The translations under genes and the position numbers were made by a program. Below the pieces are notes generated by a model that was not told where the DNA came from, did no database searches, and saw only the letters and a list, made by a program, of their open reading frames with translations. A stretch of DNA of 64,000 nt from a phage, in sequence record PV730300.1, one strand, 5' to 3'. Positions 43,309 through 45,677 of the stretch are shown piece after piece. The first letter of the stretch is position 1; each line of letters begins with the position of its first letter.

Positions 43309-44268
43309 TTAGATTCCAATAATAGTTGCTGCTCGTTTATCCTTGGATCTGGTGTTTGCTCTACTACGTGACAAACCTCCACAAGATTCACAACGAATGA
43401 TATCGAAAGAACTTACCGCAGTGTGGTATTGCTTACCAGTAACAACGTGAACATGATCACTTCCGCAACGAGAACAACGGACTTTCTCATCTGGGTAATA
43501 AGCGGATAAGTTAGGATGTTGTGGAATCCACGGAAGGATTTTCATATACAAATCACGGAGTGAAACAACATCACCATCGTTGTAAATCTGCATACGTTCA
43601 AAAGCATCACGATCACCTTCACAACATGCTTTCCATAAAGGGAACCCCTCGTTATCCAGTTTTTCACTCTCTGTTTCGAAATATGCTCCCATTTCTTTAA
43701 GGGAGTTGGAAGGAAGTGCAAATTGTTTCTTAGCTGCCTTCAATGTATCAACAACTACATAATTAGAAGGAGGAGCCATATCGTGATATGCAAATCGTTG
43801 GTTAATGTATGCACGGTCAAACTTATACCCGTTGTGTGCCACAACTACATCTGCCTCATTCAGAAGGTTCCAAAGATCTTGGCAAAGCTCCCAATCATCT
43901 GTATGATCAATATCAAAAAGAGGATAAGAAGACAAATTCTTACCTTCCACTTCACCAGTATACAGATCAGCAGAAGAATAAGATAACAAATAACCTCTGC
44001 GAATTACCTGGTCTGGAGAAATGAAGGCTTTGAATCGACGGAAAGTATATGCAATCTCTGGTGCAGTTTCAACATCAATAATTTTAATAACTGGTTGTTT
44101 CTTTTTAACGGGTTCTTGTTTACTTCCACTGAAACGTGCAAGGAAATCATTTACTGTGCTTTTTCTTGTTGGGCTACCTAAAACAATTGCTGCAATATTG
44201 CGAGAAGACATACCCTCTGCACTCATACTAAGGATATCTGCTTTCTGCTCTTCTGTTAATCTGCTCAC
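43309..44268 (-). CDS. DnaQ-like 3'-5' exonuclease with N-terminal HTH and C-terminal zinc ribbon
   Basis: IIDVETAP (Exo I), VVAHNGYKFD (Exo II), YNDGDVVSLRDLY (Exo III); CSRCGS...CESCGG. Confidence 0.55.
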   Translation of the reverse strand: MSRLTEEQKADILSMSAEGMSSRNIAAIVLGSPTRKSTVNDFLARFSGSKQEPVKKKQPVIKIIDVETAPEIAYTFRRFKAFISPDQVIRRGYLLSYSSADLYTGEVEGKNLSSYPLFDIDHTDDWELCQDLWNLLNEADVVVAHNGYKFDRAYINQRFAYHDMAPPSNYVVVDTLKAAKKQFALPSNSLKEMGAYFETESEKLDNEGFPLWKACCEGDRDAFERMQIYNDGDVVSLRDLYMKILPWIPQHPNLSAYYPDEKVRCSRCGSDHVHVVTGKQYHTAVSSFDIIRCESCGGLSRSRANTRSKDKRAATIIGI

Positions 44269-45371
44269 TCTGCCTCCTGTTGTGAGATGTATGACTGAAG
44301 CATACTCTCAAATGTTGTATCGTCATTATCCCAGCGTTTCATGTATACCAACTGGAAAATTGTTTCTATCCATTCATCTGTTGTCATATGGACTTCTTCT
44401 CCATCCCAAGAAGTAAAATTAACACCATCTGGGAACCACGAGTAGTAAGTATCTTTAACTGTTTGGAAAAGCTCTGCTTGAGTTTTACAAGCTGAAAGAA
44501 GATTAAAACAAGTAATATCTCCAAACTTAATATCAAAATCTTGATAAGGTCGAATACTATCTGTTTTATCTCCCATTAGCATCTGATATGCTAACCAGTA
44601 ACTGCCCCAACCTTTAACTTCTTTCTTTTTACCTTTATCTACGATCCATATATCGCCAATAGACTCGTCAATAAGAATTATATCTGGATTTTTAAATACT
44701 CCATCCTCTTTGTAGAAATTAAAAAGGATACTAGGAGTATGTAAACTATCTTTATCTATAGACACTACGATATAAGAAAATTTACCCGTCCTTTTATAAT
44801 CTTTATAACCTTGGAAACCATACTTCTCTAACTCATCATCGGCTTCTATTACAGTAACAACATCACCATTGTGGAACTCCACAAGATAATCTTTGGTTTC
44901 TGAAAGCTGAAGTGGTTTGATATCTAATCGTTCAGATTTATATTCTACAGGCATTTTGAAGGCGTGTCTGAAAGTTTTTCCTACGCCAATAACTCCGCAA
45001 TATTTTTCTAAACGTAGATGTTTTAGAATACCTAAGACTTTTGTTTTAGCTGCTTGGAAGGTGTGTCCGATATCTTCTGGCGGGTATTGCTTATCAATGA
45101 TTTCGAACTCTTCCTTTGTGAAGGGACGTTTGTTTTTGGAGGCTCTTTCTGCATTTGTATCTCCTAGCCAACCTCCAATTTTAGTCTTGCTTTTACCCCA
45201 AAACTCTGTCTTATTTTTAAATTCCTTTTGAGCACCTGAAGGGATGTGCTTCGCAATGATTGTTCTTTTCTCTAATGCAGATGCTGCTTGGAAAGCGATC
45301 TGATCATAATCAATTGCAGCTATTGTTTCTTCGTTGACATATAAATGAAGATCTTCAGGTTTAATTAAAAT
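44265..45371 (-). CDS. rnh: T4-type RNase H / flap endonuclease (5'-3' exonuclease) with no canonical start codon
   Basis: IAAIDYDQIAFQAASA and GDKTDSIRP align to T4 RNase H; reading frame open from stop at 45396-45398 with no ATG/GTG/TTG until 44954; 5' end approximate. Confidence 0.55.
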   Translation of the reverse strand: MLIKPEDLHLYVNEETIAAIDYDQIAFQAASALEKRTIIAKHIPSGAQKEFKNKTEFWGKSKTKIGGWLGDTNAERASKNKRPFTKEEFEIIDKQYPPEDIGHTFQAAKTKVLGILKHLRLEKYCGVIGVGKTFRHAFKMPVEYKSERLDIKPLQLSETKDYLVEFHNGDVVTVIEADDELEKYGFQGYKDYKRTGKFSYIVVSIDKDSLHTPSILFNFYKEDGVFKNPDIILIDESIGDIWIVDKGKKKEVKGWGSYWLAYQMLMGDKTDSIRPYQDFDIKFGDITCFNLLSACKTQAELFQTVKDTYYSWFPDGVNFTSWDGEEVHMTTDEWIETIFQLVYMKRWDNDDTTFESMLQSYISQQEAE

Positions 45372-45395
45372 ATAACCGCTAATATTTCCCCCTAA

Positions 45396-45605
45396 TTATT
45401 CATCGTCATCCTCTGTTGAGAATGTTTTAGTATACGGACATTGACGACTTTTCGGGATTGCTATAACTTCATCTTGGTTAGCGTTAGAATAGTAGCAATA
45501 TTTTGTATTGCCATTAACTTCAGAATCAGACAAGATTAAAGTAATTTGACCTGCTGCTACTGTGAAACTAAAAGCTAAAAGAACGACTGTCAGAATCTTT
45601 TTCAT
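45396..45605 (-). CDS. small secreted protein (signal peptide)
   Basis: MKKILTVVLLAFSFTVAAG signal-like N-terminus. Confidence 0.45.
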   Translation of the reverse strand: MKKILTVVLLAFSFTVAAGQITLILSDSEVNGNTKYCYYSNANQDEVIAIPKSRQCPYTKTFSTEDDDE

Positions 45606-45677
45606 AACGCCTCCTAAAAAGCCTACCTCATTAAGTAGGTAGGCATAATATCATAACTAATCCCGCAAGTCAAGAAC

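Follow-up and report, generated by a model that had tools for sequence, protein, structure and literature searches.

In the 64,000-nucleotide stretch of phage DNA in sequence record PV730300.1 (hereafter the window), which belongs to a phAPEC8-like phage of the genus Phapecoctavirus (subfamily Stephanstirmvirinae), the gene of a predicted flap-endonuclease-type 5' nuclease very probably starts at an ATT codon (45383-45381, minus strand), giving a protein of 372 residues. A strong Shine-Dalgarno (SD) sequence precedes this codon, and relatives carry either a near-cognate codon or a canonical start at the aligned position. The five public Phapecoctavirus annotations examined begin at an internal ATG and describe a product of 229 residues. 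The features discussed below are collected in Table 1.

The frame of the nuclease is open over 376 codons, from 45395 to the TGA at 44267-44265. It follows the TAA of a 69-codon gene on the same strand, read directly from the sequence at 45398-45396. The first ATG, GTG or TTG comes only at codon 148, with the ATG at 44954-44952, after 147 codons that include none of the three. An earlier note on this DNA had described a frame lacking these three codons back to the TAA at 45396-45398; its coordinates were confirmed, and its estimate of about 140 open codons gave way to the exact count of 147. The two in-frame ATT codons that it had listed as possible starts, at 45383-45381 and 45371-45369, were also found, together with a third one at 45365-45363. 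The peptide IAAIDYDQIAFQAASA is encoded 5' of the ATG at 44954, and the sequence after the upstream stop reads TAA-TT-AGGGGG-AAAT-ATT-AGC-GGT-TAT.

When the 47 stop-to-stop open reading frames (ORFs) of the window that reach 150 codons or more are compared, the nuclease ORF has by far the longest stretch before a canonical start. The runner-up has a stretch of 55 codons and is probably spurious, and the remaining ORFs have 36 codons or less. Given that ATG, GTG and TTG together represent 5.4% of codons in the window's own usage, a run of 147 codons free of them has a probability P of about 3e-4; inside the other genes of the window, the longest such run is 123 codons. This low probability prompted us to consider a selection against internal canonical starts in the N-terminal third of the gene, which was rejected as unsupported: TTG or GTG codons are present there in L009, L012 and the Justusliebigvirus ESCO32. 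Because relatives carry these codons in the same stretch, their absence from the first 147 codons (44955-45395) is probably due to chance.

Comparison with orthologs, which the earlier note had proposed as a check, was carried out on 23 distinct start regions collected from GenBank, IMG/VR, ENA and Logan assemblies, 20 of them from relatives with at least 50% protein identity. In all of these 20 regions, a GGAGG or GGGGG motif is followed after 4 nucleotides (5 in L012) by a near-cognate codon: ATT in 11 cases, ATC in 5, ATA in 2 and CTG in 2, with no canonical codon. At the same aligned codon, the Vequintavirinae exhibit ATG (CR3), GTG (KB57) or TTG (the rV5-like phage CarlMeissner), and the Gly-Tyr pair after the start is common to both groups (M-G-Y versus I-(S)-G-Y). 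Over the 23 start regions, only ATT, ATC, ATA, CTG, ATG, GTG and TTG occur at the aligned position, the canonical codons being counted as ATG 2, GTG 1 and TTG 1. The triplet just before it varies freely (AAT, ACT, GTT, AGT, TTT, AAG, AAA, AAC, TTA, ATT, and TAA in L013), and the codons after it are conserved as Ser/Thr-Gly-Tyr. The four codons ATT, ATC, ATA and CTG are exactly those reported to initiate best in E. coli after the canonical three, at about 1-2% of the AUG level (bioRxiv 10.1101/063800). The spacing of 4 nucleotides is also the commonest SD-to-start distance among the genes of the window (31 cases). The first option raised in the earlier note, a start at ATT 45381-45383, is supported by the coincidence of this codon with the starts of its relatives, and its other options (readthrough, truncation and the second ATT at 45371) are now unlikely.

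Several points weigh against a start at the first ATT. ATT, ATC and ATA all encode Ile, and their variation alone would suit an ordinary internal Ile codon. In L028 and L029, whose proteins are 53-57% identical to that of the window, an ATG is also found about 10 codons downstream, and the first 10 or so residues are therefore not essential; conservation alone would be compatible with a slightly later start. In literature searches, neither an N-terminal peptide nor ribosome-profiling or toeprint data turned up for this phage or its relatives, and the role in low expression or IF3 sensing considered below is one that we infer. The evidence that discriminates is of another kind: the CTG cases, the TAA of L013, a preceding triplet that varies freely, the SD sequence and the alignment to the canonical starts of the sister clade. 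CTG accounts for only 7-21% of Leu codons in these genes. The proteins of L014 (ATA) and L015 (CTG) are 92.6% identical and their start codons differ at two bases, both being near-cognate. In L013, an in-frame TAA stands directly before the ATC codon and the ORF therefore cannot begin further upstream.

It is very unlikely that initiation takes place at a later non-canonical codon, ATT 45371-45369, ATT 45365-45363, ATA 45323 or ATT 45314. These codons are in frame, and called starts located about 8-10 codons later in the homologues of 53-57% identity indicate that the extreme N-terminus is dispensable. However, the SD sequence lies at least 13 nucleotides from the second ATT and the third one has none, so that neither has a usable site. 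Moreover, relatives often lack a near-cognate codon at these positions: AAA (L027) or GAA (L028, L014 and L015) stands at the second one, and several relatives have ACA or ACT at the third. The first position alone carries a near-cognate or canonical codon in 23 out of 23 start regions. RNA folding of the 121 nucleotides around the start gave nothing beyond shuffled controls (z = -0.26), and for this reason no riboswitch, pseudoknot or frameshift-type element is proposed.

The region upstream of the ATG behaves as coding sequence. When the whole open frame was used as a tblastn query, relatives matched it over 92-98% of its length, including Vequintavirinae (CR3, KB57, phiTE and rV5-like phages), Pseudomonas PAK_P1/PaP1-like phages and Vibrio ICP1. 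In a comparison of the window with ESCO32, the proportions of nonsynonymous and synonymous differences over the first 143 codons are pN = 0.24 and pS = 0.79 (the latter saturated), and the substitution ratio omega is about 0.07 over the whole nuclease gene. These values show purifying selection on the N-terminal 143 codons, which stay open in 20 out of 20 lineages examined. An alignment of 44 homologues revealed that Asp25 (in the motif IDYDQ), Phe138 and Arg139, all upstream of Met144, are invariant, and that Asp27 is conserved in at least 90% of the sequences. In the AlphaFold2 model of the protein, the first core beta-strand (residues 16-25) ends with Asp25. This residue presumably provides the 5'-nuclease active site with its first metal-binding carboxylate, and we take it to be equivalent to Asp26 of T5 and Asp19 of T4. 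The earlier note had placed an N-terminal domain upstream of the first canonical start; this domain was found to be conserved and under selection.

These results bear on the idea of a truncated gene or pseudogene, in which only the 229-residue C-terminal fragment would be made from ATG 44954 and the upstream 143 codons would be decaying. In its favour, this form is annotated in 5 out of 5 Phapecoctavirus GenBank records examined and is held by the protein database. We consider it highly improbable, as the N-terminal part is under purifying selection and stays open in all 20 lineages examined, and the product from ATG 44954 would be devoid of Asp25, Phe138 and Arg139 as well as of the core strands 16-25 and 127-137, which belong to a single, confidently predicted domain. 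There is no SD sequence within 20 nucleotides upstream of this ATG, and the position of Met144 is occupied by Leu or Pro in several homologues (e.g. LSLPKEYK, LELPKEYK). The ATG at 44954 was also considered as the internal start of a second product and rejected, since it has no SD sequence and its Met is not conserved. Separately, for the 'exodeoxyribonuclease' genes of FelixO1-like phages (Felixounavirus and Erwinia phages; tblastn hits H76-H89), the similarity to the query does not start before its residue 151 or 210. The onset of the match is close to where the mis-annotated phAPEC8 protein begins, and the N-terminal parts of these proteins are much more diverged or organised differently.

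The 1.5-kb region is shared, with at least 95% identity, by 65 phage records of GenBank, all of them phAPEC8-like, and the same ATT was read in the five Phapecoctavirus records that we opened and in the IMG/VR contig L008. A sequencing or assembly error having destroyed an ATG would account for the oddity of this gene, and nothing beyond the oddity itself speaks for it. Because these 65 records carry the region at such identity with the same codon, a sequencing error is excluded for practical purposes; the same or an equivalent near-cognate codon is moreover found in independent IMG/VR, ENA and Logan assemblies covering 20 diverged lineages, which leaves this explanation a negligible chance.

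In the five records opened (phAPEC8 RefSeq, iGC_PHA_EC001, ASO2A, EF1-1 and WPEC4), the annotated product is systematically the 229-residue protein starting at the ATG, a form also present in the protein database (P0019, P0029). In two of them, the gap of 441 nucleotides before this ATG is filled with short ORFs in other frames. These out-of-frame 'hypothetical protein' ORFs are found on the minus strand at 45032-45154 and 45164-45256 (phAPEC8 gp266, WPEC4 CDS215/216); lying inside the N-terminal coding region of the nuclease, they are most likely gap-filling artefacts of the missed ATT start. The gene of the Justusliebigvirus ESCO32 (about 77-78% protein identity) is annotated from an internal GTG, 32 codons late, inside the conserved DYDQVAFQA motif. 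The annotated 229-residue protein is an artefact of gene finders accepting only ATG, GTG and TTG. An opposite deviation was seen in phiTE (L037 277-330), where a GTG-GGA-TAT is found 9 codons downstream of the annotated ATG of the exonuclease. This GTG-GGA-TAT follows a strong AAGGAGG site and aligns with the starts of KB57 and CR3; the phiTE annotation may thus be 9 codons too long.

The TAA of the 69-codon gene is located 12 nucleotides upstream of the ATT, and the two genes share a frame in this phage only. In relatives, the gene upstream is in another frame (L004), ends about 100 nucleotides away (L025), or is replaced by a methyltransferase (L028) or HNH endonuclease (L030) gene. These arrangements were used to weigh a readthrough of the TAA, which would yield a fusion of the small protein with the nuclease. 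The shared frame in the window is in line with such a fusion, and a protein of 444 amino acids in the database (P0005) looks like one. We rejected P0005 as evidence for readthrough: it is an artefact, as the Logan contig SRR30397360_28145 (L021) has an in-frame TAG at 2208-2210, which the gene caller translated as Gln; translating this locus does not give the query protein. In the Justusliebigvirus L004, the frames of the two genes differ, and a TGA just before the SD sequence closes that of the nuclease; L013 carries both a TAG and a TAA in frame between the genes; and the upstream genes of L028 and L030 are unrelated. Besides, the fusion of a DNA nuclease to a signal-peptide-like N-terminus would make little functional sense. 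Readthrough is thus extremely improbable.

The short distance between the genes also raises the possibility of termination-reinitiation, in which ribosomes ending the 69-codon gene would restart at the ATT, the expression of the nuclease being mainly tied to translation of the small gene. Besides the 12 nucleotides found in the window, this is favoured by the upstream stop overlapping or abutting the SD sequence in many relatives (e.g. TAGGAGG), and by reporter experiments in which about half of initiation came from reinitiation in closely spaced cistrons, including an infC-type AUU junction (PMC3592434). Yet the gene arrangement is not conserved, whereas the SD sequence and the near-cognate codon are: the called upstream gene of L025 ends about 100 nucleotides before the SD sequence, and methyltransferase and HNH endonuclease genes precede the nuclease in L028 and L030. 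We therefore regard reinitiation as an unlikely main route of expression; since the start codon would still be the ATT, it would be a contribution to initiation at this codon rather than an alternative to it.

The product of the gene is predicted to be a flap-endonuclease-type 5' nuclease of the phage replication module. The AlphaFold2 model of the 372-residue protein forms a single domain with high confidence (predicted local distance difference test, pLDDT, of 95.8; predicted template modelling score, pTM, of 0.89), and its core strands 16-25 and 127-137 lie in the part missing from the annotation. The model has a flap-endonuclease fold, combining the PIN-like alpha/beta core and the helix-3-turn-helix (H3TH) region that characterise the 5' nuclease superfamily. 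At the sequence level, the acidic metal-binding clusters and the basic arch residues of the superfamily were recognised, and the residues D25, R139, Y148, K149, E180, D182, D183, D210, K211, D212, D272 and D275 are invariant in the 44 homologues. The motifs FRH..YK..R, EADD, DKD and GDxxDN align with the 5' nuclease of Taq polymerase and with T4 RNase H, and the protein matches PHROG 107 'exonuclease' with an E-value of 1.4e-55.

Other searches point to a family that is divergent in sequence. Pfam was scanned with the full protein and with its N-terminal and C-terminal parts, which gave no meaningful hit. For the window protein there was none even at E-values up to 1, neither PF02739 nor PF01367 being detected; PF02739 is carried by the homologues P0035 and P0073-P0084. 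No match to PDB sequences was obtained with phmmer for the 372-residue protein, and the profile of the 44 homologues detected only Taq polymerase, weakly (E = 0.065). The hhalign comparison with T4 RNase H was weak and covered only the central motifs (residues 120-281), so that the alignment of the N-terminus to T4 RNase H claimed in the earlier note could not be reproduced. The model is about as close to T5 exonuclease and ExoIX as to T4 RNase H, and no special closeness to T4 Rnh among the 5' nucleases was found. The assignment to flap endonucleases made in that note holds, and its label 'T4-type' is too specific. Compared with T5 D15, E. coli ExoIX (Xni), mycobacterial FenA and the 5'-nuclease domain of Pol I (PF02739/PF01367), the phage protein has about 100 additional residues and contains insertions, for instance at residues 40-100 and 215-260, and its sequence identity to solved structures is only 12-20%.

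For initiation at the ATT, we propose that the strong SD sequence AGGGGG (45393-45388), 4 bases upstream, would place the 30S subunit so that the initiator formylmethionyl-tRNA (fMet-tRNA) pairs with AUU 45383-45381. The protein would begin Met-Ser-Gly-Tyr-Ile-Leu-Ile-Lys. IF3 discriminates against AUU, AUC, AUA and CUG, initiation would be far weaker than at AUG, and the combination of a conserved weak codon with a strong SD sequence probably keeps the amount of nuclease low. Expression may depend on the IF3 level of the host, as for infC, and ribosomes terminating at the TAA 12 nucleotides upstream may add some reinitiation in this phage.

Near-cognate initiation is a known mechanism. The infC gene starts with AUU or AUC in all bacteria, for the autoregulation of IF3, and the AUU of pcnB limits its expression (PMC5499595; PMC3592434). 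Like the E. coli genes infC (IF3) and pcnB (poly(A) polymerase), the phage gene exhibits a near-cognate start placed after an SD sequence at functional spacing, no canonical start precedes its conserved coding sequence, and both the position and the weakness of the codon are conserved across orthologues. It also shares with infC a start close behind the stop of the preceding cistron, the infC junction being UAA GGU AUU (PMC3592434). Unlike these two genes, it encodes a DNA nuclease rather than a translation or RNA-metabolism factor, so that no autoregulatory loop is expected, and its codon drifts between AUU, AUC, AUA and CUG within the phage clade. The Vequintavirinae orthologues (rV5-like, CR3, KB57, phiTE), with 37-42% protein identity over 93-98% of the length, have in common with the window gene the Gly-Tyr right after the start and the replication-module context. 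Unlike it, they start canonically, and for this reason they are annotated full length. What is notable here is the conservation of near-cognate initiation across a phage clade expressed in E. coli, together with the consistent truncation of the public annotations examined.

The persistence of a strong SD sequence and a weak codon through many codon switches, never to ATG within the clade, suggests that the level of nuclease may have been selected to be low or to depend on IF3, and the sister clade, often on the weaker GTG and TTG, follows the same trend. A more tentative and rather doubtful proposal is that the near-cognate start would be a selected regulatory device across the phage subfamily, tying the synthesis of the flap endonuclease to the activity of host IF3. 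If this were true, the nuclease would be throttled early in infection and would rise as the IF3:ribosome or IF3:mRNA ratio shifts, making a phage counterpart of infC-type control.

Phages of the Phapecoctavirus type are widely isolated for therapeutic purposes and serve in screens of defence systems. Both the annotated 229-residue form and the ESCO32 form are devoid of the presumed catalytic Asp, and the former also of two core strands, so that cloning or modelling the annotated protein is predicted to give an inactive fragment. To our knowledge, infC and pcnB are the only E. coli genes with a confirmed AUU start, and we found no prior account in the literature of AUU initiation in phages, nor of this start in the phAPEC8-like phages or the Stephanstirmvirinae. 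In the present case, at least 20 diverged lineages have retained a near-cognate start for a gene expressed in E. coli, with a sister clade using ATG, GTG or TTG. This provides a natural comparative series to ask why weak initiation is selected, for example because of nuclease toxicity or of an expression coupled to IF3. Gene finders limited to three start codons can systematically miss such genes.

Table 1. Positions of the nuclease gene, its proposed initiation signals and the neighbouring features in the window
Feature	Position	Strand	Basis and remarks
Nuclease coding sequence (5'-3' exonuclease / flap endonuclease)	44265..45383	-	Proposed; 372 codons from ATT (read as fMet) plus TGA 44267-44265
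Near-cognate initiation codon ATT (AUU)	45381..45383	-	Proposed; aligned codon in relatives is start-competent
Shine-Dalgarno sequence AGGGGG	45388..45393	-	Like AGGAGG, pairs with the anti-SD (one pair being G-U); spacer AAAT (45387-45384), 4 nucleotides
Asp25 codon, motif IDYDQ	45309..45311	-	Invariant acidic residue
ATG used as start by public annotations	44952..44954	-	Internal Met144 of the full-length protein
69-codon upstream gene	45396..45605	-	ORF list; PHROG 4641, E = 7e-27; small protein with hydrophobic, signal-peptide-like N-terminus
Terminator-like hairpin GCCTACCT...AGGTAGGC followed by TTTTT	45621..45644	-	Scan; after the rdgC-like gene, begins one base after the -10 box
Sigma-70-like promoter TTGACT-17-TATTAT with TG extension	45645..45673	-	Consensus scan, 10/12 matches; pattern match only
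GTGA overlap of the nuclease TGA with the GTG of the next gene	44265..44268	-	Sequence and ORF list
DnaQ-like DNA polymerase exonuclease subunit gene	43309-44268	-	PHROG 403, E = 6.6e-107

The nuclease gene is located between an RdgC-like gene and the gene of a DnaQ-like DNA polymerase exonuclease subunit. On its 3' side, a GGAGG is found 4 nucleotides before the GTG of the DnaQ-like gene, the same spacing as at the ATT, and the overlap of the two genes suggests that their translation may be coupled. On its 5' side, the putative promoter lies upstream of the small gene and the nuclease gene, and a rho-independent terminator is annotated at the site of the hairpin in GenBank MZ726793. Transcripts from this putative promoter would start inside the hairpin and escape it, and those reading in from the rdgC-like gene would be terminated. 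Finally, in CR3, KB57, phiTE and one uncultured relative (L005, L007, L037 and L030), an HNH homing-type endonuclease gene is located directly upstream of the nuclease, in place of the gene of the small signal-peptide-like protein of Stephanstirmvirinae.

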